In this document: positions 9,071 through 58,059 of the stretch, in pieces
Numbering within the stretch: the first letter of the stretch is position 1
How the letters are laid out: every line of letters begins with the position of its first letter
Made by a program: the position numbers and the translations under genes
NCBI GenBank assembly: GCA_963834795.1
Contig: CAWIDL010000032.1
Location: forward strand, 34,979-98,978
DNA: 64,000 nt
Origin: an uncultured delta proteobacterium
Lineage (GTDB): Bacteria > Desulfobacterota > Desulfobaccia > Desulfobaccales > 0-14-0-80-60-11
Reading direction: 5' to 3'
Notes under the pieces: model-generated
The model's database searches: none
What the model saw: the letters and a program-made list of their open reading frames with translations, nothing else
Told to the model about the DNA's origin: nothing

Positions 9071-10059
9071 AGCCGGCGGAAACCCAACTGGCGGTAGGAG
9101 GCCAGGCGGTGCTGGAGGGCGTGATGATGCGCTCCCCCCATGCCCTGGCCATCGCGGTGCGGCGTCCCGACGGCTCCATTTGCCTCAAGGATGAGCCTTA
9201 CCATTCTCTGGCGGAGCGCCTCCCGGTTCTGAAGCGCCCCTTGCTGCGGGGCCCCCTGATCCTCCTGGAGGCCATGGCGACCGGGGTCCGGGCCCTCAGC
9301 TTTTCAGCCCAGGCCGCTCTCCAGGAGGAGGAAGACGACGAGCCGCCCCTGGGCTGGGTCAGTATCTCCCTTACCCTGGGGGGCGCCTTCCTGCTGGCCT
9401 TCCTCCTCTTCGGCTTTCTGCCCCACTGGCTCAGCGGTTTTGGCGGCCGTCTGCTGGGGCATTCCCTCACCCCGGCGGACCTCTCCTTCCACCTCATCGA
9501 TGGCCTCCTCAAGGCGTCCTTTATCCTGTTATATCTCTGGGGCATCTCCTTTTTCCCTGATATCCGCCGGGTCTTCCAATATCACGGCGCCGAACACAAG
9601 TCTATCTGCACCTTTGAGTCGGGCCAGCCCCTGGAAGTGGAGTACGCCCGGCGCCACCCCACCGCTCATGCCCGCTGCGGCACCTCCTTCATCCTGGTGG
9701 TGCTTCTGGTGAGCATCTTGATCTTCGCGGTCTTCTTCCCGCTGTTTCCCGGTTTGACCCACAGCGGCCTGGCCAACAATCTTCTCCAGGTGCTCGTCAA
9801 GGTAGGCCTGATGCTCCCTATTGCCGCCATTTCCTATGAAATCATCCGCTGGGGGGGGGAACATCGGGACCATTTCCTGGCCCGCTTCCTCCTCTGGCCG
9901 GGGCTGGCCACCCAGCGCCTCACCGCCCTGGAACCGGACGATTCCCAGTTGCAAGTGGCCCTGGAAGCCTTGAAGGCGGTGGTGGTCCGGGAACAGCAGC
10001 CCCAGGCCGGGGAGACCTTGGACCTGGCGTCGCATCCATGGGCCCAATGTCAGCATTGA
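9067..10059 (+). CDS. DUF1385 family membrane protein
   Basis: [46 protein letters not shown] overlap with rpmE. Confidence 0.9.
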
Positions 10060-10976
10060 TCCCTGACCCGGACAATATACCTGCATCCGCAAACGCCAAC
10101 CGAAACCTGAAAACCGAAAACCGAAAACTTTACATTGGTCCGGCCGGCTGGGATTATCCCGACTGGCAGGGGGTGGTTTATCCCGCCGCGGTAAAGGGCG
10201 CAGGCCGCCTGGCCTTCCTGGCAACGCTCTTCAACGTGGTGGAGATCAATGTCACCTTTTACCGGCCCATCGCCCCTAAGGATGCGGCCCGCTGGCTGGC
10301 GGCGGTGGCGGCTAATCCGGAGTTTCGCTTCACCGCCAAGCTCTGGCAGGTTTTTACCCACGAACGCCGCGGGGCCGCCCCGGAATGGGCCCAATTTAAT
10401 GAGGGGCTTTCGCCGCTTAAGGCCGCCGGGCGCCTGGGGGCGCTCCTGGCCCAGTTTCCCTATTCCTTCCATAACACCGGGGAAAACCGGGAATACCTGC
10501 TGAGACTCAAATCCCACTTAGGGGAATACCCCCTGGCGCTGGAGGTGCGGCATCGGTCCTGGCAACAACGGTCGGTGCGGGAGTTCTTGCAGGACGCGGG
10601 GCTCGATTTTTGCAATATTGACCAGCCCCAGGTCTCCTATCCCATGGGGGCCACCCGCTGGGTCACCGGCTCCCGGGGCTACCTGCGGTGCCATGGCCGC
10701 AGGCGGGAGGCCTGGTTCCAATTCGGGGAGGACCGCCAGGCCCGTTATGACTACCTGTACAGCCCGGAAGAACTGGCGGAGGTGGCAGACCGGGCCCGGG
10801 AGCTAATGGCCAAGGCCCCCGAAGTCTACGTCATCTTCAACAACCACCCTGCCGGCCAGGCGGTGGCCAACGCCCTGGAGCTGCTCCACCTCCTTAAACC
10901 GGCTCACCCCCCTACCCTGCCCCCCGGCCTGGCGGCGGCCTTCCCCCGGCTCGCCAGGAGCCGCCCGCCTGCGTAG
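10047..10976 (+). CDS. DUF72 (YecE-like) TIM-barrel protein
   Basis: IGPAGWDYPDWQGVVYP, VEINVTFYR, LAQFPYSF, LEVRHRSW, YLRCHGR, RYDYLYSPEEL, IFNNH. Start uncertain (ATG 10038 or 10047). Confidence 0.88.
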   Translation: MSALIPDPDNIPASANANRNLKTENRKLYIGPAGWDYPDWQGVVYPAAVKGAGRLAFLATLFNVVEINVTFYRPIAPKDAARWLAAVAANPEFRFTAKLWQVFTHERRGAAPEWAQFNEGLSPLKAAGRLGALLAQFPYSFHNTGENREYLLRLKSHLGEYPLALEVRHRSWQQRSVREFLQDAGLDFCNIDQPQVSYPMGATRWVTGSRGYLRCHGRRREAWFQFGEDRQARYDYLYSPEELAEVADRARELMAKAPEVYVIFNNHPAGQAVANALELLHLLKPAHPPTLPPGLAAAFPRLARSRPPA

Positions 10977-19913: not shown

Positions 19914-19982
19914 AAGGCATTAAAGGTGGGGCGGCCGTCCCTGGCCGCCCTAAATTGGGCGGGCACGGAGGCCCCCCCCCAC

Positions 19983-20046
19983 CGATGACTGATAACCGAA
20001 AACCGAACACTGAAAACTAAAAACTCGAAACCCGAACTCGAAACCA
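19983..20046. repeat. Degenerate heptamer array (AACCGAA/AACTGAA/AACTCGA-like) upstream of etfA
   Basis: gactgat aaccgaa aaccgaa cactgaa aactaaa aactcga aacccga actcga. Confidence 0.8.
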
Positions 20047-24464: not shown

Positions 24465-24938
24465 ATGCGCTGCCCTTACTGCCACAGCACCAACAATAAG
24501 GTGATCGATTCCCGCCCCAGCCGGGAGGCCAATGCCATCCGGCGCCGCCGGGAGTGCCTCCACTGCCAGCGGCGCTTCACCACCTACGAGCAGGTGGAGG
24601 AGTCCATGCCCCTGGTCGTGAAGAAGGACGGCCGCCGGGAACCCTTTCAGCGGTCCAAGTTATATGAAGGCATCATTAAGGCTTGCGAGAAGCGGCCGGT
24701 CTCCATTGACGCCATCGAGAATTTCCTGGACGGCCTGGAACGGGAGATGCTGGAGGGCGGCCAGCGGGAGATCGCCTCCACCTGGATCGGCGAACGGGTG
24801 ATGGCGCAATTGCGCCAATGGGATGAAGTGGCCTACGTGCGCTTCGCCTCGGTCTATCGCCACTTCACCGACGCCACCGACTTCATGGAGGAGATTCGCC
24901 GCCTCCTGGCCAGCCGCAAGGAAGAAAAGAAAGAGTAA
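24465..24938 (+). CDS. nrdR: Transcriptional repressor NrdR
   Basis: MRCPYC...RRRRECLHCQRRFTTYE, ATP cone, DEVAYVRFASVY. Confidence 0.97.
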   Translation: MRCPYCHSTNNKVIDSRPSREANAIRRRRECLHCQRRFTTYEQVEESMPLVVKKDGRREPFQRSKLYEGIIKACEKRPVSIDAIENFLDGLEREMLEGGQREIASTWIGERVMAQLRQWDEVAYVRFASVYRHFTDATDFMEEIRRLLASRKEEKKE

Positions 24939-24940
24939 TT

Positions 24941-25012
24941 TGGGGGGAGAGCCAGGGGCTTTTTGTAAGTGGCCCCTGCCCTCCCCCCAAACCCCCCTCC
25001 CAACCCCCATAA
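24941..25012. repeat. Dispersed ~70-bp element (GGGGAG..GCCA.GGGC..TTTGTAAGTGGCCCCTGCCC..CCCCAAACCCC..ATAA); copies 26765-26837 and, more diverged, 44101-44172
   Basis: The first two copies share TTTGTAAGTGGCCCCTGCCC and a CCCCAAACCCC...CCCATAAGGGG tail. Confidence 0.8.
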
Positions 25013-25159
25013 GGGGAACTTATTTCTTGATTTAATGCCATACTATTTACGAAGCACAACAATAGGGCGGCCGCGGGCCGCCCTTATTCCTGGGACCAAA
25101 ACTCAGGGGCGGGTTTAAAACCCGCCCCTACGCCAATTCCACCAGGAATTCCTGCCGCC

Positions 25160-26557
25160 CTACATCACCAGGATCTCTTCCAGGCCATCCTTCCAGCCAT
25201 CCCAGAGAAAGGCGTCCAGCCTCCCCTGGGCGATGACCCGAAAGGCATAGCGAGCCTGGGACGCATAAAAGTCGCAATTGGGCGCCGGGGCCTGAAGCTG
25301 CCCATTAATGGCATAGACCTCGGCGGGACAGGGGGCCCCGCAGAAGTGCCGCACCGCGCAGCGGTTGCAGGGGTCCAACTGCTCCACTGCCCGGCCAGTC
25401 ACCTGTTTGAAGGCCGGGGTGGCCAGCAGCTCGGTGACCGGGGTCTCAAAGAGGTTGCCGCCGTGGAACTCCGGCAGCCCCAGAAACTCGCTGCACGGGG
25501 CCACTTCGCCCGCGGCCCCCACTGCAAAGAAGCAGCGGCCGCCGCCGCAGGGGGAGAGGTCGCACATCAGCCGCCGGGCCCCCGGCGCCGCCAGCCCCAG
25601 AAGCAGGTTGGCGAAGTTGCCCACCACCAATTTCCGACCCGTCCGTTCATAGAGCTCATAGCTCCGGTCCAGGGCCTGGAAGAAGAAATGCGCCAGTTCC
25701 TCCTGGTCCGGCATCAGCGAGCGCCCGCCGGCCTGGGTGCCCCGCACCGGGTTGAGCAGGACATTGCCCGTCCCCCGCTGGTGGAAAAACTCCACCAGCT
25801 CCGGCAGGTGCCGGACATTTTCTTTGGTAACCGTGGTGATGACGTTGAGCCCGGGGTAGTCGTGCAAATCCTCCAGTACCTTGACGGTCTCGGCGAAGAC
25901 GCCGCGGCCGCCCCAGGTGCGCCGGCTGCGGTCCGCGATCTCGGCGGTGGCCCCATCTAAGGAGATGCCGATGCCGGCCCCCTGGGCCATCAGGAAATCC
26001 CGGGCGTTTTTGTCCAGCAGCACCGTGTTGGTCTGCACCCCGAAGCGGAAGTAACCGCCGTACCGGGCGATGCCCTGAAAGACCGCATCCTTGGCCAACA
26101 GCGGCTCGCTGCCATGAAAAACCAGTTGCGGTCTGGCGCCGGCCGGCAGTGTCTTTTTAAAAAATTCCTGCAGCAGGGAGAGGGCCTCCAGCACCCTGGC
26201 CGGCTCCATGTCGCGGCCGGTCCGCCGGGCCTCCCGGGGTAGATAACAGTAGCCGCAATCGAGGTTGCAGCGCTCCGTTGGGTTGAAATAGACTGCGGAG
26301 GGCAGCAACCCGAAGCGGACGTTGTGCAGGTCCGCGGCCAGCCTGGCCTCTTTTTCCCGGAATACCCGGGGTAGCTCGCTCCCCAGCAGGTAATCCAGGG
26401 CCTCCTCTCGGGGCGAGAGCACCCAAAAGGCGGTGTCCGCGTTGATCAGGGCCACGTAGTCCGGATGGCCCACCTCCAGGACGTCGAAGTGGGGCCCGGC
26501 CCCGGCGTTGACCGCAGCCAGGGACGGGCCCTCGAGGTTTGGGGTTTTGGTCGCCAC
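25160..26557 (-). CDS. cbpB: Peptide-modifying radical SAM/SPASM enzyme, CbpB-like
   Basis: YFNPTERCNLDCGYCY (CX3CX2C); SPASM-like CDLSPCGGGRC...PCSEF...CNRCAVRHFCGAPCPAE...NC. Starts 4 nt after the peptide gene; family assignment (TIGR04163) from recall. Confidence 0.85.
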   Translation of the reverse strand: MATKTPNLEGPSLAAVNAGAGPHFDVLEVGHPDYVALINADTAFWVLSPREEALDYLLGSELPRVFREKEARLAADLHNVRFGLLPSAVYFNPTERCNLDCGYCYLPREARRTGRDMEPARVLEALSLLQEFFKKTLPAGARPQLVFHGSEPLLAKDAVFQGIARYGGYFRFGVQTNTVLLDKNARDFLMAQGAGIGISLDGATAEIADRSRRTWGGRGVFAETVKVLEDLHDYPGLNVITTVTKENVRHLPELVEFFHQRGTGNVLLNPVRGTQAGGRSLMPDQEELAHFFFQALDRSYELYERTGRKLVVGNFANLLLGLAAPGARRLMCDLSPCGGGRCFFAVGAAGEVAPCSEFLGLPEFHGGNLFETPVTELLATPAFKQVTGRAVEQLDPCNRCAVRHFCGAPCPAEVYAINGQLQAPAPNCDFYASQARYAFRVIAQGRLDAFLWDGWKDGLEEILVM

Positions 26558-26561
26558 GGCC

Positions 26562-26678
26562 CTACTTGGCCTTTTTGGCGTCCGCCATCAGGTAGTGGGA
26601 CAGGCCCACCTGCTCGCCGTTGGGGGCGCAGGTGTAGCGGATACTGATGGGTTTCTTACAACTAGATTTTTTTGCCAT
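26562..26678 (-). CDS. cbpA: 38-aa modified-peptide precursor, CbpA-like (MAKKSSCKKPISIRYTCAPNGEQVGLSHYLMADAKKAK)
   Basis: Strong AGGAGG RBS; GLSHY motif recalled from the CbpA family (TIGR04164); position directly upstream of the rSAM gene. Confidence 0.82.
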   Translation of the reverse strand: MAKKSSCKKPISIRYTCAPNGEQVGLSHYLMADAKKAK

Positions 26679-26866
26679 ATAGGGGTCCTCCTTCCTCCGG
26701 TGGTTTACCGGCCAGGCCAGCGAATTCGCGGCCGCCGGGGGAAAGCTTGGTGTAATGTGATTCTTGGGGAGGGAGCCATGGGCTTCTTTGTAAGTGGCCC
26801 CTGCCCCTTCCCCAAACCCCACCCCCAATCCCATAAGGGGGTGGCACCGGCGTCCCGCCGGTGCTT

Positions 26867-26903
26867 AAAAAAAAAGAAGTCCCATCGCTCGGATGGAACT
26901 CCC
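26867..26903 (-). terminator. Intrinsic terminator in the cbpA leader (probable riboswitch expression platform)
   Basis: Minus strand GTTCCATC-cgagc-GATGGGAC then CTTC and a T9 run. Confidence 0.75.
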
Positions 26904-26928
26904 TTTACCATCAGGAGTAGCCTCTAAA

Positions 26929-27057
26929 AGGTCGTTGAAAAACTCCCATAATTGAGAATTTGTCATTCTGAGCGAAGCGAAGAATCTAGTCATATTAATA
27001 AGTTCTAGATCCTTCACTTCGTTCAGGATGACATAAAAACGCGTTTTTCAACAACCT
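26929..27057. repeat. Nested palindromic MITE/REP-like element
   Basis: 15-bp terminal IRs (AGGTCGTTGAAAAAC / GTTTTTCAACAACCT, 14 of 15) enclosing 29-bp inner IRs (TGTCATTCTGAGCGAAGCGAAGAATCTAG / CTAGATCCTTCACTTCGTTCAGGATGACA, 25 of 29). Confidence 0.85.
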
Positions 27058-27067
27058 GCTAATAACC

Positions 27068-27232
27068 GCCAGGCAGGTCTTCTGGCTCTGGGATCTACCG
27101 GAGGAAGCCAGCCTTCCCGCCGGGGTTTTTGGTAAGTCCCCGGCAGTGGCCGGCCTCAGCCTTGCTTCCTCCGTCCCCCATCACAGCGGCGGGACCGCCC
27201 CGGATTCGCACCGGGTTCCGGATTGCCTGGAA
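27068..27232 (-). ncRNA. Cobalamin (B12) riboswitch
   Basis: Minus strand: P1 CCAGGCA/TGCCTGG; GGAAcCCGGTGcgAATCCGGggCGGtcCCgCCgCTGTGA; GCCACTG; GGGAAGG; B12 box AGCCAGAAGACCTGCC. Confidence 0.95.
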
Positions 27233-27245
27233 GTCTTTATGATAA

Positions 27246-27272
27246 ATTATAGCGGTGATCGGTTTTTGTCAA
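27246..27272 (-). promoter_or_regulatory. Sigma70-like promoter driving the riboswitch-cbpA-cbpB transcript
   Basis: Perfect TTGACA and TATAAT hexamers about 14 nt before the riboswitch, but spacer is only 15 bp. Confidence 0.6.
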
Positions 27273-27323
27273 GTGAATGTTTATTTTATAGCAATGATGC
27301 CTTCTTAAAAATTAATTATTAAT

Positions 27324-28385
27324 TTACTTAATGCCAATTTCTTTATAAATTTCAAGTGCTTTATTAGATAATTTTAGCGCTATTAGCTTCTCCATATCCA
27401 ATATATTTTTATTTGCATAAATAACCAAGAGAAATATAATTGTAGTATATGAAATAGCATAAGATTTCAAATTATTCTCTTTGGCAATTTTGAAAAAAGT
27501 AGAGAGGGCTTCTTGGGCCCACGAAAGAGAATCTTGTAGTATTTTATCCAATTCGGCTATTTTATTAATATTTAGTATATATAATAAATTAAATAACTTT
27601 CCTAACATAATTGATTTCTCATCTATTTTGTGCTCTCTTACGGTAAATCCAGCTTTGGTTGCAAGTTCAGCAAAAAGGGTACCTTCTTTTGTCGAATCAA
27701 GATATATAGCAAGAGAATTCAAGTTAATGTCTACATCTAATTTTCCTTTGAGTACATCTCGTGAATAAATTCTTTCAACTTTTTCAGTTAATTTTTTCAA
27801 ATTTGAAAATTCTTCGTCACCTAGTTCTAATAATGCACTTAAACGAAATAACTTTCTCCGCAGATTAAGCGGCACTTCTTTCGCAGTTTTATATCTCAAC
27901 TTATGATCAATAGCAGCCCAAGCATGTTGTAATGCGGTTCTAACTTGAATCTCAGCCTTTATTTCCGAGTAATCTTTCCATTCAGTAAGATCTTTCCGAT
28001 TATCAGCTAATGTTATGATATAATGAACCGATAAATAGCCAAATTTATCCGGATCGAGAATCTGACTTTTATCAATAGAATTTTCCAAATCTATTTTAAA
28101 TTCTCGTTTTAATATCTCACTAACCACATTAACATCTTCCAAGTAATAGCAAATTATTCGGATTCCTACTAAATCTGTAATTTCTTGTATCGGATCAAGG
28201 TAATCCTTCCCTTCTCTGTTTATTTTATCAGCGAAACTTTCTATAGTTTTGGGTCTGTAATTTATCTGAACTATATCAATAGCATGTAAGAGATCCTTAA
28301 TCAAATCCTCTAATTTATTTGTAAAATTTTCATATATTCCAAATTTTGATCTATAGAGGTCAACCCATTCATCTGGTGCTTTCAT
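27324..28385 (-). CDS. AT-rich RelA/SpoT-synthetase-domain protein (small alarmone synthetase-like) with C-terminal extension
   Basis: RPKTIESFADK, DLVGIRII, GYLSVHYII, EIQVRTALQHAWAAIDHKLRYK; no hydrolase, TGS or ACT domain. Confidence 0.88.
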   Translation of the reverse strand: MKAPDEWVDLYRSKFGIYENFTNKLEDLIKDLLHAIDIVQINYRPKTIESFADKINREGKDYLDPIQEITDLVGIRIICYYLEDVNVVSEILKREFKIDLENSIDKSQILDPDKFGYLSVHYIITLADNRKDLTEWKDYSEIKAEIQVRTALQHAWAAIDHKLRYKTAKEVPLNLRRKLFRLSALLELGDEEFSNLKKLTEKVERIYSRDVLKGKLDVDINLNSLAIYLDSTKEGTLFAELATKAGFTVREHKIDEKSIMLGKLFNLLYILNINKIAELDKILQDSLSWAQEALSTFFKIAKENNLKSYAISYTTIIFLLVIYANKNILDMEKLIALKLSNKALEIYKEIGIK

Positions 28386-28559
28386 ACCAAACCCCGTAAA
28401 ATATGTTTTTAACTTATTGATAAATTTAATAATTATGTCAAGTAAAAATTTTAATATAAAAGCTTCGTCTCTCTGCTTATCAATGGCTCAATCGCCTTGA
28501 CAACAGGCCCCCTGGCAGGTTAACCTATCCTTTTGAAACAGGTTTCACAAAGGTGGGGG

Positions 28560-29825: not shown

Positions 29826-29874
29826 GAAATTCTAAATCAGACTCTCGCGCCGCGATAATCGGGCGTGGCGGCAG

Positions 29875-29985
29875 GTCAGTTTTCAGCTTTTGGATTTTCG
29901 GTTTTGGGTTTTCGGTTTTTTATTAGCGGTCAGCTTTTGGGTTTTTGCTTTTAGCTGACTGCTGATCGCTGAGAGCTGACAGCTA
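29875..29985. repeat. Heptamer-periodic hairpin element (TCAGCNN / NGCTGAN arms, T-rich heptamer core)
   Basis: gtcagtt ttcagct tttggat tttcggt tttgggt...tagctga ctgctga tcgctga gagctga cagcta. Confidence 0.85.
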
Positions 29986-31836: not shown

Positions 31837-32076
31837 GTCAGCTGTCAGCTATCAGCGATCAGCAGTCAGCTAAAGCAAAAACAAAAAACCAAAGCTGAAA
31901 AGCCGACAGCTGATGAATAATAGCAAATGTCAAGGCCGGCTGATATATTTGATGGGTATATCCACAAATGAAGGCACTAATTGAATTTACTTAAAAGCAC
32001 CCAAAACCCAAAAGCTGACAGCTGACAACTGAACGCTGTAGCTAAAAAAAGCTGAAAGCTGAAAGCTAACAGCTAA
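31837..32076. repeat. Two heptamer-periodic elements between aspS and Re-citrate synthase (31837-31915, 31995-32076)
   Basis: gtcagct gtcagct atcagcg atcagca gtcagct-A-rich-agctgaa...; aagctga cagctga caactga acgctgt...aagctga aagctga aagctaa. Confidence 0.85.
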
Positions 32077-34420: not shown

Positions 34421-36097
34421 ATGTGCGATCCCTATAAATTAGAAGAAGTTAAGGCCGCTAAGGCCAAGTATGACGAGACCGTGGCCAAGGTGTTGACCAA
34501 GATTCCGGAGCGCAAGGCGGAGTTCGTCAATACCTCCGGGATCCCCATCGCCCGGGTTTATACCCCTCTGGACATGGCGGATTTCGACTATCTGCAGAAA
34601 TTGGGGGTGCCGGGCCAATACCCTTACACCCGGGCGGTGCAGCCTACCGCCTACCGGGGCCGCTATTGGACCATGAGGCAATACGCCGGCTTCGGCTCCG
34701 CCGAGGAGACCAACGAACGCTACCACTTTCTGCTGAAGTCCGGCCAGACCGGCCTCTCGGTGGCCTTCGACCTGCCCACCCAGATCGGCTATGACTCCGA
34801 CGCCCCCCTGGCCCGGGGGGAAGTTGGCAAGGTAGGGGTGTCCATCGACTCACTCTGGGACATGGAGCGCCTTTTTCAGGGCATCCCCCTGGACCAGGTG
34901 TCCACCTCCATGACCATCAATTCTCCTTGCGCCGTGCTCCTGGCCATGTACCTGGTGGTGGCGGAAAAACAAGAGGTCGCCTTTGACAAGCTGCGGGGGA
35001 CGGTGCAAAACGACATCCTCAAGGAGTATTCCTCCCGGGGCACCTACATCTTCCCGCCCCGGCCCTCCATGCGGCTGATTACCGATATCTTCGAGTATTG
35101 CACCAGGGAAGTCCCCCAATGGAACACCATCAGCATCAGCGGCTACCATATCCGGGAGGCCGGCTCCACTGCGGTGCAGGAGATCGCCTTCACCCTGGCC
35201 AACGGCATCGCCTACGTAGAGGGGGCCATTAAGGCGGGCATGAAGGTGGATGAGTTCGGCCCGCGCCTGTCCTTCTTCTTCAACTCCCATCTGGATTTCC
35301 TGGAGGAAGTGGCCAAGTTCCGGGCCGCCCGGCGGCTGTGGGCCAAGATCATGAAGGAGCGCTTCGGGGCCAAGGATCCCCGCTCCCTGATGCTGCGCTT
35401 CCACACCCAGACCGCCGGCTGCTCTCTGACGGCCCAGCAACCCTTGAACAATATCATACGGACGGCCTTCCAGGCCATGAGCGCCGTCCTGGGCGGCACC
35501 CAATCCCTGCACACCAACTCCTTCGACGAGGCCATGGCCCTGCCCTCTGAAACCGCGGTGCAGGTGGCCCTGCGCACCCAACAGGTCATTGCCTATGAGA
35601 CCGCGGTGAGCGACACCGTGGATCCTCTGGCCGGCTCCTACTACCTGGAGAACCTGACGGACGCCATCGAATTCAAGGCTCAGGAGTATATCGACCAGAT
35701 CGACCGCCTGGGAGGAGCCGTGGCCGCCATCGAACAGGGCTTTGTGCAGCGGGAGATCGGCGCCAGCGCCTACCGCTACCAGAAGGAGATTGAAAAAGGC
35801 GAGCGGGTGGTAGTGGGGCTGAACCGCTTCCAGGTGAAAGGTGAAGAGAAGATTCCCCTCCTCAAGATGGCCCCCGAGATGGAGGATAAACAAAAGGCCC
35901 GCCTTAAGGAACTGAGGCAGACCCGGGACAACGCGATGGTTCGCCAGACCCTGGCCCAACTCAAGACTGCGGCCCAGGGCGCCGACAACCTCATGCCCCC
36001 TATCCTGAGCGCGGTGAGGACCCTGGCCACCCTGGGGGAGATTTGCGACACCCTGCGGGAGGTCTTCGGCGAATACGAAGCCCCGGCTATGGTCTAA
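34421..36097 (+). CDS. Methylmalonyl-CoA mutase, substrate-binding (large) subunit of a split enzyme
   Basis: WTMRQYAGF (Tyr specificity residue), [29 protein letters not shown] (Arg), [21 protein letters not shown]. Confidence 0.93.
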
Positions 36098-36102
36098 GAT
36101 TT

Positions 36103-36186
36103 TAGTTCAAAGTTCAAAGTTTAGGATTCGAAGTTCAAGTGAGAAGGGCTTAGGGCTCTTAACCTTGAACCTCGAACTTTGAACTA
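36103..36186. repeat. Heptamer hairpin with a different unit (TTCAAAG arm / TTGAACT arm)
   Basis: ttcaaag ttcaaag tttagga ttcgaag ttcaag...cttaacc ttgaacc tcgaact ttgaact. Confidence 0.85.
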
Positions 36187-36204
36187 TCTATAAGGAGATC
36201 CGAG

Positions 36205-36609
36205 ATGCCGGAAGAGAGAAAAATCAGGGTGCTGGCCGCCAAACCCGGATTGGACGGCCATGACCGCGGAATCAAAGTGATCTGCGCCGCCTTGCGGGAC
36301 GCCGGGATGGAGGTGATCTACACCGGCCTCCGCCAGACCCCGGAGCAGATCGTCGCGGCAGCCGTCCAGGAGGACGCCGACGTCATCGCCATGAGCGTCC
36401 TGTCCGGGGCCCACAACCATCTGTTTCCCCGGGTGATGGAACTGGTCAAGGAAAAGGGCATTCAAGACGTCCTGGTCATGGGGGGCGGCATCATCCCCGA
36501 AGAGGACATTACCCCCTTGAAACAGGTGGGGATCGCCGCCATCTTCACCCCGGGCACAAACACCAGCGACATCATCAATTTCATCCGGGAACACGCCAGG
36601 AAAAATTAA
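36205..36609 (+). CDS. Cobalamin-binding small subunit of methylmalonyl-CoA mutase
   Basis: [10 protein letters not shown] (DxHxxG), SVLSGAH, GGGIIP, IFTPGT. Confidence 0.95.
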
Positions 36610-36620
36610 CCGTAAACCCT

Positions 36621-36902
36621 ATTAGCTGTCAGCGATTAGCTTTCAGCTATCAGCTTTCGGGTTTTTGGTTTTTGGTTTTTGGTTTTTGCTTTTTGCTTTT
36701 TGCTTTTAAGCTATTGCCTTCCTTTGTGGATGGCCCGGCGGCCACAGGCCGCCCTATAAAATCCCCTAGCCCTACCGCTTATCGGGCGGGCTGTGCCCGC
36801 CGCCTTACTCTGCCCAATACTCATTAGTTGTGAGCGGTTTCAGCTTTAAGCTTTCAGATTTTTGCTTTAGCTGAGTGCTGATGGCTGATAGCTGACAGTT
36901 AT
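36621..36902. repeat. Heptamer-periodic elements at 36621-36714 and 36833-36902 plus REP-like palindromes
   Basis: tgtcagc gattagc tttcagc tatcagc ttt; (ggttttt)n (tttttgc)n; tagctga gtgctga tggctga tagctga cag. Confidence 0.85.
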
Positions 36903-38851: not shown

Positions 38852-39787
38852 ATGTCCCATTCCCATCTATTCGGACCGGTGCCTTCCCGCCGCCTCGGGC
38901 GGTCCCTGGGGGTGGACTTGATCCCCCGGAAAACCTGTCCCTTTGACTGCATCTATTGCGAGGTGGGCCCCACCAGCCACCAGACGGAAACCCGCTTCGA
39001 TTACGAGGCGGAGGCCATGGTGGCGGAGCTGAGCGCCTACCTGGAGGGCAGCGCTCCGGAACTCGATTTCATCACCCTGGCCGGCAGTGGCGAGCCCACC
39101 CTGAACCAGGGGATGGGGGGCATCATCCGGCGCCTGAAAGAGTTGACCGCCATCCCGGTGGCGGTGCTGACCAACGGCGCCTTGCTCCACCTCCCGGAAG
39201 TGCGCCGCGAGCTTAAGGCCGCGGACCTGGTGCTGCCATCCCTGGACGCCGCCCGGGACCAGGCCTTCCAGGCCGTCAACCGCCCCTTGCCAGGCTATCC
39301 CCTCAGCCGGCTGTTGCAGGGCCTGGAGGCCTTCCGCCGGGAATATCCGGGCCCTATCTGGCTGGAGGTGCTGTTGCTTAAGGGCCTCAACGACTCCCAG
39401 GAGGATCTGGAGGCCCTGCGCCGGGCCTTGCGGACCCTGGCCCCGGACAAAGTGCAGCTCAACACCGCGGTGCGCCCGGGGGTGCTGAACCAGGCCCAGC
39501 CATTATCTTTGGAGGCCCTGGCGGCCATCGCTTGTGGCCTGGAGGGCGAGGTGGAAGTGATCGCCTCCTATGAGGGCGCCTGCCAGGCGGCCGCGGCCCC
39601 GGATGACGCAACTCTGACCGAGATGCTGGCCCGACGGCCCATGACCGCCGTCGATCTGGCCGGGGTCTTGGCCCTGCCCCTGCCCCTGGTGCAAGAGAAG
39701 CTCCAGCGCCTGGAGCAAGCAGGCCAAATTTTCTGCACCTGCTATCATGACCAAGATTTTTATCAGCTTGTAATGCCGGGTTGTTAA
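38852..39787 (+). CDS. Radical SAM protein (COG0731/TYW1-like FGPVPSRRLG family) with C-terminal helical extension
   Basis: LFGPVPSRRLGRSLGVDL, CPFDCIYCE, TLAGSGEPTL, AVLTNG, PSLDA, VQLNTAVRP. Confidence 0.88.
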   Translation: MSHSHLFGPVPSRRLGRSLGVDLIPRKTCPFDCIYCEVGPTSHQTETRFDYEAEAMVAELSAYLEGSAPELDFITLAGSGEPTLNQGMGGIIRRLKELTAIPVAVLTNGALLHLPEVRRELKAADLVLPSLDAARDQAFQAVNRPLPGYPLSRLLQGLEAFRREYPGPIWLEVLLLKGLNDSQEDLEALRRALRTLAPDKVQLNTAVRPGVLNQAQPLSLEALAAIACGLEGEVEVIASYEGACQAAAAPDDATLTEMLARRPMTAVDLAGVLALPLPLVQEKLQRLEQAGQIFCTCYHDQDFYQLVMPGC

Positions 39788-39906
39788 GGCAGTTTTCGGT
39801 TATCTGTTTTCTGTTTTCTGTGAAAGGCAAAATCAAATTCAAAGGCCCCTTGGCAGAGACAGAGAACAGAAAACAGTTTCGATCCGCGCCTTCGGGGGTT
39901 TCGAAT

Positions 39907-42900
39907 ATGGTGGATAGATTCGATGTGGGAATGGACGTTGGTTCGGTTAGCCTCAACCTGGTGGTGCTGGATGGTCAAGGGCAGGTGATTCTGGAAGAGT
40001 ATCTCCGTCACCTGGGGGACCCCTACCGCAGCGCCCTTAACCTCCTGGAATCCCTGGAAGCTCAGTTTCCGGCCGGGCGCTGCGGCCTGGCCGCCTTCAC
40101 CGGCATAGGCGGCAAGGTCCTGGCTGGGATCCTGGGCGGCCTCTTCGTCAACGAAGTCATCGCCCTGGGATGGGGGACGCACCATTTCCTACCTAAGGCC
40201 CGCACCATCATTGACATTGGGGGAGAGAGCGCCAAGATGGTTCTGGTGGCCGAAGTTAACGGCCATCTGGTGATCCAGGACTTCGCCATGAACACCATGT
40301 GCGCCGCGGGCACCGGCTCCTTTCTGGATCAGCAGGCCCATCGCCTGGGCTACAGCATCGAGGAATTTAGCCAACTGGCCCTGAAGTCCACTACCCCGCC
40401 CCGAGTGGCCGGGCGCTGCAGCGTCTTTGCCAAGACGGACATGATCCACCTGCAGCAGGGGGCCACCCCGGACTTTGAGATCATCGCCGGCCTCTGCCGG
40501 GCCATGGGCCGCAATTTAAAAAGCAATATCGGCAAGGGCAAAACTATCACCCCGCCGGTGGCCTTTCAGGGAGGAGTGGCCCACAACCTGGGGGTGCGCC
40601 AGGCCTTCCGCCAGGTCTTCGGCCTGGATGAAACCGGCCTCCTCATCCCGCCCCACTTCTGCAGCCTGGGCGCGGTGGGCGCGGTCCTGGTGGCCCGGGA
40701 AAACCCGCCGCCCCATTTCACCCTGGATCTTTCGCCCCTGCGCCGGCACCTGCAGGAGGAATCCGAGCCGACCCGGCATCTTCCGCCCCTCTCACCGCCG
40801 CCGCTCCTGGGGCCGGACCACTACCAGGTGGAGGAGATCCCGCCGGGCCGGGTGGCGGAAGGCTACCTGGGTGTCGATGTGGGCTCCATCAGCACCAACG
40901 TGGTGGTCATCGACTCCCAGGGCCGGGTCCTGGCCCGGGAGTATCTGATGACCGCGGGCCGGCCCCTGGAGGCCATCACCGAGGGCCTGCGCCGGGTAGG
41001 CGCCAGGATCGGGGACCGGGTCCGGATCCTGGGGGCGGCTACCACCGGCTCCGGTCGCTACCTCACCGGAGACTTCATCGGCGCCGACGTGGTACGCAAC
41101 GAGATCACCGCCCAGGCCACTGCGGCCGCGGCCATCGACCCGGAGGTGGACACCATCTTCGAGATCGGCGGCCAGGACTCCAAGTTCATCTCCCTGAGCA
41201 ATGGCGCCATCGTCGACTTCATGATGAACAAGGTGTGCGCCGCGGGCACCGGCTCCTACCTGGAGGAGCAGGCGGAGAAACTGGGCATCTCCATCCGGGA
41301 AGAGTTTGGCAGCCTGGCCCTGCAATCCAACAACCCGGTGCGCCTGGGGGAACGCTGCACCGTATTCATGGAATCGGACATCGTCCACCATCAGCAGCGG
41401 GGCGCCGCCAAGGAGGACCTGGTATCGGGCCTCTCCTACTCCATTGTTCAGAACTACCTGAACAAGGTGGCCGAGGACCGCCCCATCGGCAAACGCATCT
41501 TCTACCAGGGGGCCACCGCGGCCAACCGCGGCATTGTGGCGGCCTTCCAGCAGGTCTGCGGCAAGCCCATCACCGTGCCGCCCCACCACGACGTCACCGG
41601 GGCCATCGGTGCGGCGCTGTTGGCCATGCGGGAGCGGGACTGGGAAACCTCCAAATTCAAGGGCTTCGACCTGGCCGACCGCCAGTATCGCATAACTTCC
41701 TTTGAGTGCCAGGGCTGCGCCAACCACTGCGAGATTCGCCAGGTGCAGATCGAGGGGGAACAGCCCTTGTTCTACGGCAGCCGCTGCGAAAAATACGAAG
41801 TCGCCGCCTCCCGCAAGAAGGTGGACCTGGTTGACCTGTTGGCAGAGCGGGAAGCCTGGCTCTACGGGCCCGAGCCCCCCCAGGAAGGCAAGCAGGGCGC
41901 CATCGGCATCCCCCGCACTATGTTCTTCCAGGAGCTCATGCCATTTTTCCGGGCCTTTTTCGAGGACCTGGGCTTCACCGTGGTCTATTCCCAGAAGACC
42001 AACAAGTCAGTGATCAATGAGGGGATGGAGGCCCTGGCGGCGGAGCCCTGCTATCCGGTGAAGGTGGCCCACGGCCACCTCCTGGACCTTCTCAAGGCCG
42101 GGGTGCAGCGCATCTTCCTGCCCAGCGTCATCGACATGCCCCACCCCGACCCGGAGGTGCGGGCCGGGGTGGTCTGCCCCATGGCCCAGTCCCTGTGCTA
42201 CACCGCGCCCAGCGCCATCGATTTTGCCGCCTACGGCGCCAGGGTCCTCACCCCGGTGCTCTATTTCGGCCGGGGGGAGAAGCGGCTGCGCCAGGGACTG
42301 CGGAGTCTGGGGAGAGAATTGGAAGTCTCCCCCTTCCGGGTGAATCGGGCCATGAAAAAGGCCATCGCCGCCCAACAAACCTACTATAACCGCCTCCACG
42401 CCCGGGGCCGGGAGATCCTGGAGTCGCTTCCGCCTGACGGCCGCCTCATGGTCCTCATCGGCCGCCCCTATAACGCCTTCGACCCGGGAATGAACCTCAA
42501 TCTGCACCGCAAGCTGCGGCAGTTGGGGGTCTTAGCCCTGCCCATGGATTTCCTGCCGGTGGACCAGGTCCAGGACCTGGACGAAATCAAGCCCATGTAC
42601 TGGCGGTTCGGCCAAAAGATCCTGGGGGTTGCGGAGCACATCCGCCGGGATCCGCGGCTTTACGGCATCTTCATCACCAACTTCGGCTGCGGCCCCGATT
42701 CCTTCATCCAGCACTTCTTCAAGGATCGCATGCGGGGCAAGCCCTACCTGGAGATCGAAATCGACGAACACTCCTCCGACGTGGGGGCCATCACCCGCCT
42801 GGAGGCCTTTCTGGACAGCCTGAAGAACGTCAAGGTGGCGCCGGCCGCGGAGAAGCTCTCCCCCTATCGCTACCGCGTGACCGGCTCTCTGAAACGCAAG

Positions 42901-44079
42901 ATTTATCTGCCACCCATGACCGACCAGGCCCTGGCCCTGGTGGCAGCCTTCCAGGCCTGCGGCGGAGAGGCCGAGGCCTTGCCGGACTCCGACGAAGAGA
43001 CCCTGGAGCTGGGCCGCCGCCTCACCTCGGGCAAGGAGTGCTATCCCCTGATCCTCACCACCGGTGACCTGGCCAAGCTTCTGCGCCGCCCGGATTTCGA
43101 TCCCGACCGCAGCGCCTTCTTTATGCCCGCGGCCAACGGCCCCTGCCGCTTCGGCCAGTACCACCGCTTCCACCGCCTCATCCTGGACGAGTTGGGCTAC
43201 CCCCAGGTTCCGGTCTATTCTCCGGATCAAAGCGAAACCATGTATCAGGAAGTCGGCATGGTGGGGCAAGACTACGCCCGTATCGTCTGGAACGGCGTGG
43301 TGGCCATCGACCTTTTGGAGAAGAAACTCCGGGAGGTCCGGCCCTATGAACGTTATGCCGGCGAATCCGACAAAGTCTATAAGCACTACTTACAAAAAAC
43401 CTTTGAAACGGTCCGGGACCGGCAAGACCTGCCGGCCGTGCTCCGCCATGCCCGAGGCGCCTTCGAGGACCTGGCCATGCAAACCAATGGCCGCAAACCC
43501 ATCGTCGGCATCGTGGGCGAGATCTATACCCGGGCCAACAAGTTCTCCAACGAAAACGCGGTGCGGGAGATCGAGGCCCTGGGAGGCGAGGTCTGGATGC
43601 CGCCCATCGGAGAGTGGCTCCTCTACGTTACCCACTCCTCCCGCCATGACGCCTGGACCGCCCGGCATTACGGCCGCTACCTGAAGTTTTGCCTGGAGGA
43701 CCGGGTGCAGAAAAAGGTGGAGCACCGCCTGGAAGAGATCTTCCACGGCAGCATCAAGAACCTGCGGGAGCCCTCCATCGCCGAAGTCCTGGAAATGGCC
43801 AAAGATTACCTGCACCCCTCCTTCGAAGGCGAGGCCATCCTGAGCATGGGCAAATCCCGGGATTTCGTGCGCAAGGGGGCCGCGGGGCTGGTGAACATCA
43901 TGCCCTTCACCTGCATGCCCGGCACCGTGGTCAACTCCCTGCTCAAACGCTTCCGGGAGGACCACGACAACATCCCCTTCCTCAACCTGGCCTATGACGG
44001 CCAGGAACAGAGCCATACCCGCACCCGCCTCGAAGCCTTCATGTACCAGGTGCGCCAGTTCCGCGAACGGCGGAAGTAG
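39907..44079 (+). CDS. CoA-substrate-specific enzyme activase fusion (2x BadF/BcrAD ATPase + DUF2229 + 2-hydroxyacyl-CoA dehydratase-like domains), about 1390 aa
   Basis: GMDVGSVS...IDIGGESAK...MNTMCAAGTGSFL; GVDVGSIST...FEIGGQDSK...MNKVCAAGTGSYL; CQGCANHC; CYPVKVAHGH; NFGCGPDS; GPCRFGQY; MPFTCMPG. Confidence 0.9.
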   Translation: MVDRFDVGMDVGSVSLNLVVLDGQGQVILEEYLRHLGDPYRSALNLLESLEAQFPAGRCGLAAFTGIGGKVLAGILGGLFVNEVIALGWGTHHFLPKARTIIDIGGESAKMVLVAEVNGHLVIQDFAMNTMCAAGTGSFLDQQAHRLGYSIEEFSQLALKSTTPPRVAGRCSVFAKTDMIHLQQGATPDFEIIAGLCRAMGRNLKSNIGKGKTITPPVAFQGGVAHNLGVRQAFRQVFGLDETGLLIPPHFCSLGAVGAVLVARENPPPHFTLDLSPLRRHLQEESEPTRHLPPLSPPPLLGPDHYQVEEIPPGRVAEGYLGVDVGSISTNVVVIDSQGRVLAREYLMTAGRPLEAITEGLRRVGARIGDRVRILGAATTGSGRYLTGDFIGADVVRNEITAQATAAAAIDPEVDTIFEIGGQDSKFISLSNGAIVDFMMNKVCAAGTGSYLEEQAEKLGISIREEFGSLALQSNNPVRLGERCTVFMESDIVHHQQRGAAKEDLVSGLSYSIVQNYLNKVAEDRPIGKRIFYQGATAANRGIVAAFQQVCGKPITVPPHHDVTGAIGAALLAMRERDWETSKFKGFDLADRQYRITSFECQGCANHCEIRQVQIEGEQPLFYGSRCEKYEVAASRKKVDLVDLLAEREAWLYGPEPPQEGKQGAIGIPRTMFFQELMPFFRAFFEDLGFTVVYSQKTNKSVINEGMEALAAEPCYPVKVAHGHLLDLLKAGVQRIFLPSVIDMPHPDPEVRAGVVCPMAQSLCYTAPSAIDFAAYGARVLTPVLYFGRGEKRLRQGLRSLGRELEVSPFRVNRAMKKAIAAQQTYYNRLHARGREILESLPPDGRLMVLIGRPYNAFDPGMNLNLHRKLRQLGVLALPMDFLPVDQVQDLDEIKPMYWRFGQKILGVAEHIRRDPRLYGIFITNFGCGPDSFIQHFFKDRMRGKPYLEIEIDEHSSDVGAITRLEAFLDSLKNVKVAPAAEKLSPYRYRVTGSLKRKIYLPPMTDQALALVAAFQACGGEAEALPDSDEETLELGRRLTSGKECYPLILTTGDLAKLLRRPDFDPDRSAFFMPAANGPCRFGQYHRFHRLILDELGYPQVPVYSPDQSETMYQEVGMVGQDYARIVWNGVVAIDLLEKKLREVRPYERYAGESDKVYKHYLQKTFETVRDRQDLPAVLRHARGAFEDLAMQTNGRKPIVGIVGEIYTRANKFSNENAVREIEALGGEVWMPPIGEWLLYVTHSSRHDAWTARHYGRYLKFCLEDRVQKKVEHRLEEIFHGSIKNLREPSIAEVLEMAKDYLHPSFEGEAILSMGKSRDFVRKGAAGLVNIMPFTCMPGTVVNSLLKRFREDHDNIPFLNLAYDGQEQSHTRTRLEAFMYQVRQFRERRK

Positions 44080-44271
44080 GGAAGAAAGGCAGAAATAACT
44101 TGGGGGAAGGTGCTAGGGGGCCGACGGCCGCTTACAATCCTTCCCCCAAACCCCCATCCCCAACCCCCATAAATTGTGGGGCACGGCGAGCCGTGCCCCT
44201 TGAAATTTTGTTGTAGGGTGCGCACTGCGCGCACCAAATAGATTTTATGGCATATCAGTCACTGGCCGTTC

Positions 44272-50309: not shown

Positions 50310-50701
50310 GACGGCTTCCTCCTGGGTTTTTTGGTTAGCGCGGGCAAGGCCGCCTTTGGTTTACGGTTAATTTGCCGTGCCGCTTTAATGAGCGGCTAGT
50401 GTTGTGCTCCGCAAATAGTATGGCATTAAATCAAGTGAAAACCTAAGTCCAAAGGGTATTAAAGTCCCCCTTTGGAAAAGGGAGATTTCGGGAGGTTATT
50501 TTAAATCCCCCCTGCCCCCCTTTTTCAAAGGGAGGTTAAAAAACCGTGGTTTGAAATCTCATAGCAATTATGAAGTTTCACACTAGTGCCCACCCCTTAC
50601 CAGACCTCACCTGGCCCCTCACCCTTGACCTTTGCCCTGGCAGAGGTTATAAAATTTTTGTCAGGGTTAGGGAACCCTTCCTGGCGACCAGAGTAATAAG
50701 T

Positions 50702-52238: not shown

Positions 52239-53014
52239 GCCTGCCCCGACACCGGATGCGGTGGAAAGTGGGCAAACCTCTCGTCCGCGCGGGCGCACCC
52301 AAAAATTTACGAGCTTGGGTCTCTGACCCACACTTTTATTTTTCGGGGCCGGCCGGGTATCCTGCCCTTGCCCGGGCCAACCCCAGGTAACCACCGTGAA
52401 AAACCAAGGGTTTCCTGAATAGAATCGAATATATTTGGGCCTAGCCCCGATAATCGGCGGCCACAGACCGCCCTATTCTCCGGTTTTCGGTTTTCGGTTT
52501 TCGGTAGGGGGTTCTGGTCCGGTTTGCGGGCAGATGAACATTTTTCTGGTGGCACAGGCGTCTCGCCTGTGCGGCGCAGTCTAAAGCTTTAGGTAAAAGG
52601 GCCTTTAGTGGCACAGGATTTTAGAAGACTGTTTTCTGTCTCTGCTAGGGGGCCTCTGATTTTGCCTTTGACTTCACAGAAAACCGAAAACAGATAACAG
52701 CTCCCAGGGCGGGCTGTGCCGCCACCTTAACCAGTGCTACTTAGGCGCCGGGTCCATATCTGGCGCCTTTCTCACCTAAAGACTTCCCCCAGGCCACCCG
52801 ATTTTCTCTAAATTCCCCTGGCGCCCAGGAAAATTCTGGTATCCCTCTTGCAATACGTTTGACAATAATTTTCTTATCCGCCAAGATTTTTTGCCGATTC
52901 TATGGTTAGCGGCTCAGATATTCAATAACAGATAACTATCGGGTAGACGGTCTGGTGTTTAAACGGGCCGATGGAGCAGGCTGATCCATTTCCCGGTGCT
53001 CTTAAGGATCTTCA

Positions 53015-57085: not shown

Positions 57086-57123
57086 CCCGCCCTGCCGGCT
57101 CCGGCGGGGCGGACTTTTTTTTT
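57086..57123 (+). terminator. Intrinsic terminator after the sigma54 regulator
   Basis: CCGCCCTGCCGG-ct-CCGGCGGGGCGG followed by T9. Confidence 0.85.
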
Positions 57124-57322
57124 GGAGTTTCCGGTTTCCGGTTTTCGGTTTGGAGAATCGTCGCTTGCCCTCCCGGCGCCGTGGCGCCAGGGCCGGTGAG
57201 AAACCTTCCTCCGCCACATAAATGGCATTCTTTCCAGCTGGCGCCAGCTGGCGCCAATCTTCGGCATGTATTTTGTAACACTCAGGTTAAAGACAAAAGT
57301 TCAATGAGGATGGTACCTACTT

Positions 57323-57907: not shown

Positions 57908-58059
57908 TTGTCAAAAATTTTCCGGAATGAGGAGAGAGCGAGCGCCGTGGAATACGGGTTGTTGCCAGCCCTGGTCGCCGTAGTGATCATCACCGCGGTG
58001 ACTACCCTGGGACCAACTTGAGCGGTTAATTCAATACGGCAGCCGTTGCCTCCTGATAG
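57908..58059 (+). pseudogene. Degenerate Flp pilin copy 1
   Basis: KIFRNEERASAVEYGLLPALVAVVIITAVTTLG, then a 1-nt deletion (TGA 58019) and a further TAA in the restored frame. Confidence 0.85.

Follow-up and report, generated by a model that had tools for sequence, protein, structure and literature searches.

Why would a bacterium place a 38-amino-acid peptide, together with the radical S-adenosylmethionine (SAM) enzyme predicted to modify it, behind a riboswitch for vitamin B12? This question is raised by a compact cassette on the minus strand of a 64,000-nucleotide stretch of DNA (hereafter the window) from an uncultured delta proteobacterium of the order Desulfobaccales (GenBank assembly GCA_963834795.1, contig CAWIDL010000032.1, positions 34,979 to 98,978). 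In the direction of transcription, the cassette is composed of a cobalamin riboswitch aptamer, a terminator, a 38-residue open reading frame (ORF) called cbpA, and cbpB, a gene coding for a 465-residue radical SAM/SPASM enzyme. We find that the four parts stay together as one conserved module in several phyla: the order aptamer, terminator, peptide, enzyme recurs in 74-78 of 80 loci, which come from anaerobes of several phyla. Our best reading, whose chances of being right or wrong we hold to be evenly balanced, is that the pair yields a modified peptide whose production is repressed by B12 and which works inside the cell, in the supply of cobalt or cobamides.

The 80 loci used for comparison are contigs taken at one genome per species (labeled L001 and so on), and the sample is skewed toward relatives of the window. 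Homologs of CbpB form 2227 clusters at E ≤ 1e-30, of which the closest derive from metagenome-assembled genomes (MAGs) of Desulfobaccales, and close homologs are already labeled 'peptide-modifying radical SAM enzyme CbpB' by NCBI. At least 480 GTDB species have a cbpB gene, and cultured carriers include Desulfacinum hydrothermale DSM 13146 (L079) and Desulfobacca acetoxidans (P0114). Matches were judged by the curated cutoffs of 375 bits for TIGR04163 (the enzyme, 'rSAM_cobopep') and 35 bits for TIGR04164 (the peptide, 'cobo_pep') and by the RF00174 gathering score of 31.5 bits for the aptamer. Neighboring ORFs were called by codon-usage scoring; longest-ORF calling gave antisense shadow ORFs in genomes rich in guanine and cytosine (GC).

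The original prediction, made from the letters of the window, was of a cobalamin riboswitch followed by a CbpA/CbpB pair, arranged in a single minus-strand unit that lacks a transporter, protease or exporter. We agree on each count: the enzyme scores above its cutoff, the aptamer was found, the pair recurs in relatives, every listed part of the unit was located, and no transporter, protease or exporter is present at the window locus. The pair had also been called uncharacterized, and we likewise found no publication on the chemistry or function of CbpA/CbpB in the open-access literature and no CbpB structure in the Protein Data Bank (PDB). The parts of the unit are as follows, where MITE denotes a miniature inverted-repeat transposable element, REP a repetitive extragenic palindrome and UTR an untranslated region.

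27246..27272, minus strand: promoter-like hexamers TTGACA (27272..27267) and TATAAT (27251..27246) with a 15-nucleotide spacer, read from the sequence, directly 5' of the aptamer
27055..27245, minus strand: cobalamin riboswitch aptamer RF00174 (cmscan 80.5 bits against 31.5, E = 3.2e-18, model positions 1-189 of 189)
26928..27058, minus strand: MITE-like insertion of 131 nucleotides, absent from relatives, with terminal inverted repeats and TTAG repeats
26863..26906, minus strand: intrinsic terminator found by terminator scan, hairpin at 26906..26872 (AAAGGGAGUUCCAUC-CGAGC-GAUGGGACUUCUUU) followed by nine U residues
26760..26862, minus strand: 5' UTR segment with a GC hairpin (GCACCGGCG-GGA-CGCCGGTGC) and a G-rich REP-like repeat, families D7 and D8
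26708..26738, minus strand: 5' UTR hairpin, 5' of the Shine-Dalgarno sequence (alignment A4)
26698..26686, minus strand: Shine-Dalgarno sequence of cbpA, GGAGGAAGGAGGA, a strong match
26562..26678, minus strand: cbpA, 38-residue precursor MAKKSSCKKPISIRYTCAPNGEQVGLSHYLMADAKKAK (TIGR04164, 33.9 bits)
25160..26557, minus strand: cbpB, 465-residue radical SAM/SPASM maturase (TIGR04163, 608.8 bits)
25130..25104 and 25084..25064, minus strand: two terminator-like GC hairpins 3' of cbpB found by terminator scan, at the end of the unit
27241..28485, minus strand: AT-rich island with a GC fraction of ~0.3 (composition profile; homology break relative to L084)

Translation of cbpB is assigned to a GTG codon that lies 4 nucleotides beyond the cbpA stop codon. 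The enzyme matches TIGR04163, an equivalog model, over positions 2-428 of 428, and it also matches PF04055 and PF13186. Its radical SAM motif (C97xxxC101xxC104) is invariant or nearly so among relatives, and the SPASM region carries a seven-Cys pattern (C342-x12-C355...C397xxC400x5C406x3C410...C428), joined by C332 and C337, whose members are invariant or at least 90% conserved. By count, these C-terminal Cys residues would be enough to hold two auxiliary 4Fe-4S clusters. An AlphaFold (AF2) model of CbpB, with a predicted local distance difference test score of 84 and a predicted template modeling score of 0.85, places a beta-beta-beta-alpha-alpha domain, made of residues 24-82, in front of the barrel. 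On account of its topology and the alignment coverage, we infer that this N-terminal domain is similar to a recognition element (RRE) of peptides that are made by ribosomes and modified after translation (RiPPs) and binds the peptide. The best Foldseek match of the model is CteB (PDB 5why; E = 1.5e-18 over 455 columns, full-length), followed by anSME, TigE, ChlB and SuiB, and CteB is also the best match in a sequence search of the PDB (2.8e-16).

The peptide is conserved as well. A small ORF with the signature G[LIVM]SHY resides just 5' of cbpB in 78 of the 80 loci, at a distance of 2-60 nucleotides. Start-codon assignment, in which a few starts are over-called, gave a set of 79 peptides including that of the window. 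Most are 32-51 residues long and Lys/Arg-rich at both ends, and the conserved residues fall in the middle of the peptide, not at its ends. An Arg, a single Cys and the block G-L-S-H-Y are present in all 79 peptides and correspond to R14, C17 and G25-L-S-H-Y29 of the window peptide. The original prediction had drawn attention to two Cys residues, both of which the window peptide does contain, but Cys7 is missing from most relatives and only Cys17 is conserved. No signal peptide, cleavage motif or recognizable boundary between leader and core is evident in CbpA, and Pfam has no model for the window peptide.

Variation in the underlying DNA speaks to whether this short ORF is a gene. Across 53 different DNA sequences for the core with 8-residue spacing, codon-position entropy is 1.03 at third positions versus 0.79 and 0.53 at first and second positions, and each of the invariant residues is written with 2-5 synonymous codons. 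Such varied synonymous codons and variable third positions indicate selection on the protein, and, judged by this pattern, the 38-residue ORF is translated. The same gene is called in metagenome annotations.

With respect to family membership, the two proteins differ. Whereas the enzyme far exceeds its cutoff (608.8 bits versus 375), the peptide reaches 33.9 bits on TIGR04164, which is 1.1 bits below the cutoff, with E = 1.6e-8 and coverage of model positions 1-25 of 25. Peptides paired with genuine CbpB proteins in several other clades score 21-31 bits on this model, and forms with GTGLSHY, the type carried by L065 and L070, score 43-62 bits. TIGR04164 is a narrow model, built on a narrow seed, and the window peptide is a sub-threshold clade variant of Desulfobaccales rather than a new type. 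In contrast to the earlier view that the NGEQVGLSHY version diverges from the expected GTGLSHY form, this is the standard Desulfobaccales sequence, ISIRYTCAPNG[D/E]QVGLSHYLMADAKKAK, with an 8-residue spacer between Cys and GLSHY and with V rather than T before the block. The ...APNG(D/E)QVGLSHY... form is common to ~38 related genomes, with D commoner than E. Spacing from Cys to Gly is 8 residues in 58 of the 79 peptides, 7 in 5 and 6 in 16, such that the spacing of the window peptide is the commonest, in a sample skewed to its own relatives.

How does this pair compare with known systems? Like the CbpA/CbpB pairs defined by TIGR04164 and TIGR04163, it combines an enzyme far above the cutoff, an R...C...GLSHY peptide, a riboswitch and no accessory genes; it differs in that its peptide is the Desulfobaccales variant and its leader has been expanded by repeats and a MITE. 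The SCIFF systems (ScfA/ScfB; CteA/CteB, PDB 5wgg and 5why) are similar in being accessory-free pairs of a peptide and an RRE-bearing radical SAM/SPASM enzyme from anaerobes, and, as described above, CteB is the best PDB match by both sequence and structure. However, SCIFF peptides have six Cys residues and several thioethers, whereas CbpA has one conserved Cys, and CbpB, at 84.1 bits, falls short of the 425 bits required by TIGR03974, the model for SCIFF maturases, and is not a member. To our knowledge, SCIFF is not controlled by a riboswitch.

Other members of the radical SAM/SPASM superfamily, whose models give 80-110 bits, include PapB (ranthipeptide), DynA (dynobactin), the triceptide/cyclophane maturases AmcB, YhhB and GrrM, and anSME. 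This group offers plausible chemistries for a Cys...SHY core, namely a thioether, a His-Tyr or other aromatic cross-link, or Cys oxidation. CbpB is well short of the PapB family model NF047865 (110 bits versus 340), and a PapB-like thioether from Cys to Asp/Glu was rejected as the general mechanism because the acidic acceptor of the Cys-X3-Asp/Glu motif is not conserved in CbpA. Similarly, we rejected a sulfatase-maturase-like motif: the peptides of the window clade read C-A-P-N-G, but the anSME motif C-x-P/A-x-R is not kept across CbpA, because positions +2 and +4 vary in other clades. Naming the modification from homology was likewise set aside, since the next-best hidden Markov models and PDB matches are all equally distant. 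PqqA/PqqE and the mycofactocin pair MftA/MftC resemble CbpAB in that a small peptide is served by an RRE-dependent radical SAM/SPASM enzyme and the product is intracellular and metabolic. Unlike CbpAB, they always include a protease and tailoring enzymes, and their peptides have conserved residues at the C-terminus; CbpB scores 64 bits versus 265 on the mycofactocin model.

The leader suggests a link between this peptide and vitamin B12. As the original prediction proposed, a covariance model search recovers RF00174, and it does so at full length. This aptamer is the only meaningful RNA match in Rfam between positions 24900 and 27400, permissive thresholds included; sub-threshold matches in this interval were dismissed as generic hairpins on MITE and REP elements that resemble microRNA models. 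Among 19 diverse loci, 16 carry RF00174 directly upstream on the same strand according to Rfam, and 2 others are without upstream DNA. A profile built from the RF00174 aptamers of diverse cbpB loci places an aptamer 200-830 nucleotides 5' of cbpB, again on the same strand, in 76 of the 80 loci. Of the other four, three stop short of the leader, and the aptamer is thus present in 76 of 77 loci with upstream DNA. In L070 it is found 3.4 kb upstream, where it heads a longer operon.

A stable hairpin followed by a run of T residues resides between aptamer and start codon in 74 of the 76 leaders. Because an aptamer followed by a terminator is the usual layout of an OFF switch, repression by B12 would be the expected behavior, which fits the induction under B12 shortage suggested in the original prediction. 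This full-length aptamer followed by a Rho-independent terminator is shared with RF00174 leaders that use terminators as expression platforms. Classically, the RF00174 regulon comprises cob/cbi genes, genes for the transport of cobalt and B12, and isozymes that do not depend on B12. The cassette is unlike these in carrying a RiPP-like pair as its cargo and, in the window, in having a MITE that splits the aptamer from the terminator. A terminator had been predicted here, and it is present, its sequence conserved in L001-L006, L084 and L081; it is, however, separated from an aptamer that scores above its gathering score by the 131-nucleotide inserted element. The terminator ends 193 nucleotides past the aptamer in the window, compared with 56-91 nucleotides in 70 of the 73 other leaders in which a terminator was detected.

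The promoter predicted for the unit fared similarly. TTGACA and TATAAT are both present and are good hexamers, but their spacer is 15 nucleotides, short of the usual 16-18, they are not listed by our scan for sigma-70 hexamers (which covers spacers of 16-18 nucleotides), and they fall in a strain-variable segment: the spacer and the -10 hexamer are made of DNA that is not common to the closest strain, L084. In L001-L006, CTTGACAA occupies the equivalent position (alignment A2). We have retained the window hexamers as 'promoter-like', with a function that we infer from sequence.

Several additional features were noted in these leaders. In the window, ~190 nucleotides of UTR rich in repeats separate the terminator from the Shine-Dalgarno sequence. 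In many loci, spread over different phyla, the 5' arm of the terminator (GGG(A)GUUCC, GGGUUCCG, GGGAGUUCC) complements the CCGGAAC core of the aptamer; the arm is at 26892-26906 and the core at 27213-27219 in the window. In L066 and L075, a GGAAU core is matched by a GGAUUCC arm, and L074 is a counter-example. Pairing between terminator arm and aptamer core could serve as an antiterminator; minimum free energy folding of whole leaders gave no antiterminator that we would trust. A second structure, the UTR hairpin at 26708-26738, lies 10-40 nucleotides 5' of the Shine-Dalgarno sequence and is conserved across the Desulfobaccales clade; loci outside this clade are without the UTR extension. When drawn by hand on alignment A4, 84% of its cells pair versus 13-51% with slid partners, and one pair switches from C-G to U-A in four sequences, whereas RNAalifold predicted nothing on the UTR segment. 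A role in mRNA stability, in processing or as a second layer of control is possible.

Evidence that bears on the purpose of the module comes from its neighborhoods. The original prediction linked the peptide to cobalt or corrinoid capture, and in other phyla cbpAB is indeed found in or beside cobalt and cobamide operons, but this is so in 9 of the 80 loci only. In L070, a Chloroflexota MAG, a riboswitch is followed by cbiM, the gene for an ATP-binding cassette (ABC) ATPase, cbpA, cbpB, cbiX, cbiC and cbiD. The cobT gene lies directly 3' of cbpB in L066, L075 and L078 (two Kiritimatiellia MAGs and one Smithella MAG). L057 and L065, both Planctomycetaceae MAGs, have cobC, cobU, cobT and cobS under a second riboswitch that is divergent, and in the Thermodesulfobacteriota loci L030 and L033 cbpB is followed by a second riboswitch together with a cbiK-like gene and a gene for a FecCD permease. 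These second riboswitches and the genes they drive are small B12-regulated islands. Second cobalamin riboswitches beside cbpAB were observed at L030 3172-3357, L033 6564-6711, L057 4137-4267, L065 2779-2931 and L072 4230-4364. No recurrent function other than cobamide metabolism was seen across phyla in the 80 loci, and the pair has no conserved accessory genes; specifically, a conserved transporter, protease or immunity gene occurs in none of the 80. In L059 (3403-4074), a Dehalococcoidia MAG, a nitroreductase-family gene is located two genes downstream of cbpB, which may be a coincidence. The nitroreductase fold family includes the 5,6-dimethylbenzimidazole synthase BluB.

Based on these data, we propose the following mechanism. 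When adenosylcobalamin is plentiful, the aptamer would fold and the terminator would halt transcription; when B12 is scarce, read-through would allow CbpA to be made. The N-terminal domain of CbpB would hold CbpA while 5'-deoxyadenosyl-radical chemistry acts on the core R-x-x-C-(x6-8)-G-L-S-H-Y. An intramolecular cross-link would be the most likely product, for which our first guess is a thioether from Cys17 to a residue of the LSHY block and our second guess is a cyclophane-type link involving His/Tyr, with the variable spacer of 6-8 residues forming a tolerated loop. The product probably stays in the cell, because CbpA carries no signal sequence or cleavage motif and the locus no protease or exporter. 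As a small modified protein, it would then serve the handling of cobalt or corrinoids in cobamide supply, a role suggested by the invariant riboswitch together with the cobamide contexts in other phyla.

Several points weigh against this proposal. B12-related genes are adjacent in a small minority of loci, as noted above, and in the window clade the cassette lies among housekeeping genes, between hisS/aspS and nrdR or prs. The ligand response, the direction of regulation, the modification and any phenotype are all predictions from sequence and design. The next-best NCBIfam scores of CbpB (PapB 110, DynA 102, anSME 100 and AmcB 98 bits) are far below the respective cutoffs, and a Cys17 engaged in a thioether would be unavailable as a metal ligand. 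The 15-nucleotide promoter spacer is suboptimal, and the MITE and the AT-rich island described below could have altered the B12 response in the window strain.

In a more specific form of the proposal, CbpA that has been matured by CbpB would act inside the cell as an unrecognized part of the anaerobic supply of cobamides, perhaps as a peptide-based chaperone that conveys cobalt or corrinoids from CbiMNQO to the chelatase CbiK/CbiX, or as a peptide-derived building block or cofactor. Such a component would account for two features: the whole module moves across phyla together with a B12 riboswitch of its own, and in a Chloroflexota operon it is sited between cbiO and cbiX. We offer this version tentatively and consider it doubtful.

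Should the peptide instead be sought on the demand side of B12 metabolism? The modified peptide might substitute for, regulate or protect a process that normally needs B12, in the manner of metE or nrdDG under B12 riboswitches. B12 riboswitches commonly control B12-independent isozymes, and most loci, the window included, have no adjacent cobamide gene. The window organism also uses B12 enzymes: a B12-dependent acyl-CoA mutase is encoded at 34421-36097 (TIGR00641, 816 bits) with its B12-binding subunit at 36205-36609 (TIGR00640), which together span the 34421-36609 segment. The original prediction had pointed to this mutase, about 8 kb from the unit. The gene is real, but it is not conserved with the cassette and carries no weight as context; a mutase 7-9 kb away was rejected as functional context because the conserved neighborhood of the cassette lacks one. 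Moreover, a peptide of 32-45 residues with one maturase would be an unlikely replacement for an enzyme, and the partners found within operons are genes for cobalt transport and cobamide synthesis, not B12-independent isozymes. We therefore regard a B12-sparing role as unlikely.

A different concern is specific to the window, where insertions have altered the leader. The 131-nucleotide insertion is a MITE, as judged by its terminal inverted repeats, its TTAG duplication, an empty site in relatives, its hairpin fold and copies elsewhere, and it is without coding capacity. The terminal repeats CAGGTTGTTGAAAAAC and AAGGTCGTTGAAAAAC, of the form (C/A)AGGT(T/C)GTTGAAAAAC, match at 15 of 16 positions, and TTAG direct repeats flank the element at 27062..27059 and 26927..26924. 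The element sits three bases past the closing helix of the aptamer, just 5' of the conserved terminator. It is absent from L001-L006 and from the sister strains L084 and L081, of which the latter two retain the empty site ATTAG|AGGC and have CbpB proteins 98% identical to that of the window and leaders ~96-98% identical. On folding, the element forms a single closed hairpin (-61.8 kcal/mol, z = -9.4), related copies occupy unrelated sites in other Desulfobaccales genomes (L004, L028, L008, L027, L074, L043 and L001), and no partner transposase was identified. Relatives of its inner hairpin (CATCCTGAACGAAGTGAAGGATC...) were observed at L028 3776-3868, in the cbpA leader downstream of the terminator, and at L004 6495-6594, between cbpB and nrdR. 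The MITE shifts the terminator from ~60 to 193 nucleotides past the aptamer, which the riboswitch may tolerate because the insertion folds on itself.

The second large change is the AT-rich island at 28485..27241, which spans 1245 nucleotides with a GC fraction of ~0.3 amid values of 0.6-0.68. Homology with L084 is lost at 28486 and returns at 27240, and the island stands in place of 83 nucleotides of L084. It spans the gap between hisS, which is divergent, and the aptamer, and its promoter-proximal end holds the spacer and -10 hexamer of the promoter-like element. The gene within the island (28385..27324), located upstream of the cassette, codes for a 353-residue protein with a RelA_SpoT domain (PF04607, 7e-23) that matches the PADLOC candidate defense family PDC-S33 (1e-19). 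At the same site between hisS and the riboswitch, L081 and L082 carry an IS1595 transposase gene and a 372-residue ORF without a Pfam match, and L084 carries nothing. The site is a hot spot for insertions, which may bring defense cargo.

A third difference concerns a 131-nucleotide stretch 3' of cbpB (25071..24941), which includes a REP-like copy and is absent from L084; beyond it, nrdR (24465-24938) is convergent with cbpB. The AT-rich part of this stretch (25026-25065) has an inverted copy at 50396-50435. The REP-like families D7 and D8 have further copies at 24955-25016 and 44139-44172, and blastn finds copies in L001, L018 and L026. These G-rich repeats (...GGGGTTGGG..GGGGTTTGGGG..GGGCAGGGGCCACTTACAAA...) stand on both sides of cbpAB (24940-25071 and 26760-26862), with a third occurrence 17 kb off (44139-44172), and the UTR stretch at 26760..26862 that bears them varies among relatives.

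Have these events uncoupled the window unit from B12? Expression might now be constitutive, silent or driven by read-through, and the genes could be nearing loss. The strain-specific MITE, the aptamer-terminator distance of 193 nucleotides where 70 of the 73 other leaders with a detected terminator have 56-91, the replacement of the native 83 nucleotides upstream, and the lack of a terminator between the RelA_SpoT-like gene and the aptamer all lean this way. On the other side, the MITE RNA is a self-contained hairpin that rejoins its flanks, and the unit retains an intact aptamer, terminator and Shine-Dalgarno sequence and two intact ORFs, all with 96-99% identity to the sister strains. Uncoupling in this strain seems to us quite improbable.

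We also weighed whether CbpA is a secreted RiPP that leaves the cell through unlinked exporters under B12 scarcity, as a scavenger of corrinoids or cobalt, a signal or an antimicrobial. Most of the studied peptides modified by radical SAM/SPASM enzymes are secreted natural products, and the nearest structural relatives of CbpB are RiPP maturases. Yet a conserved transporter, protease or immunity gene is found in 0 of 80 loci, and the peptide has Lys/Arg-rich ends and mid-peptide conservation with no signal peptide, leader/core boundary or cleavage motif, which leaves secretion, in our estimation, very improbable. Finally, that the small ORF is a chance frame and the enzyme acts on something else, as the score just under the TIGR04164 cutoff and the lack of a Pfam model might suggest, is hardly credible given its presence in 78 of 80 loci across phyla 2-60 nucleotides 5' of cbpB, its strong Shine-Dalgarno sequence, its invariant residues with varied synonymous codons, and its most variable third codon positions.

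Elsewhere in the window, short periodic repeats with CGGTTTT or CAGCTNT units were observed between genes at 9900-10130, 19975-20025, 29869-29985, 31840-31881, 36620-36900, 52465-52514 and 57100-57151; these look like a genome-wide family of elements. Inverted repeats of 40 nucleotides (AGCTGTCAGCTATCAGCGATCAGC...) bracket aspS and also occur near the mutase genes. Three tandem paralogous short segments at 57927-58437 share ...GCCGTGGAATACGGCCTGCTG..., which would encode AVEYGLL, a sequence that we take to resemble the signature of Flp-type pilins, and longer ORFs follow downstream to the end of the window. An ORF of 1432 residues at 39781-44079 contains an internal duplication (40279-40365 and 41215-41301, 75% identical) with the sequence ...MNxxCAAGTGSF....

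The window cassette itself is a typical CbpB with a clade-variant precursor, and it belongs to a pair already defined by NCBIfam; the assignment is correct but not new. What is new here is the family-wide survey, the correction to a single conserved Cys, the cobamide-operon contexts, and the strain-specific MITE inside a riboswitch. For annotation, this means that entire clades of genuine precursors fall below the TIGR04164 cutoff. Nearly identical strains with and without the MITE constitute a natural experiment on how well a riboswitch tolerates a structured insertion, and the single invariant Cys and the GLSHY block narrow the candidate mutants and cross-links. CbpA/CbpB is among the few RiPP-like systems whose regulation points to a physiological role, in this case the economy of vitamin B12. 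No cobalt chaperone dedicated to the anaerobic B12 pathway is known to us, and if the modified peptide is indeed a factor for the handling of cobalt or corrinoids, it would fill a gap in that pathway.

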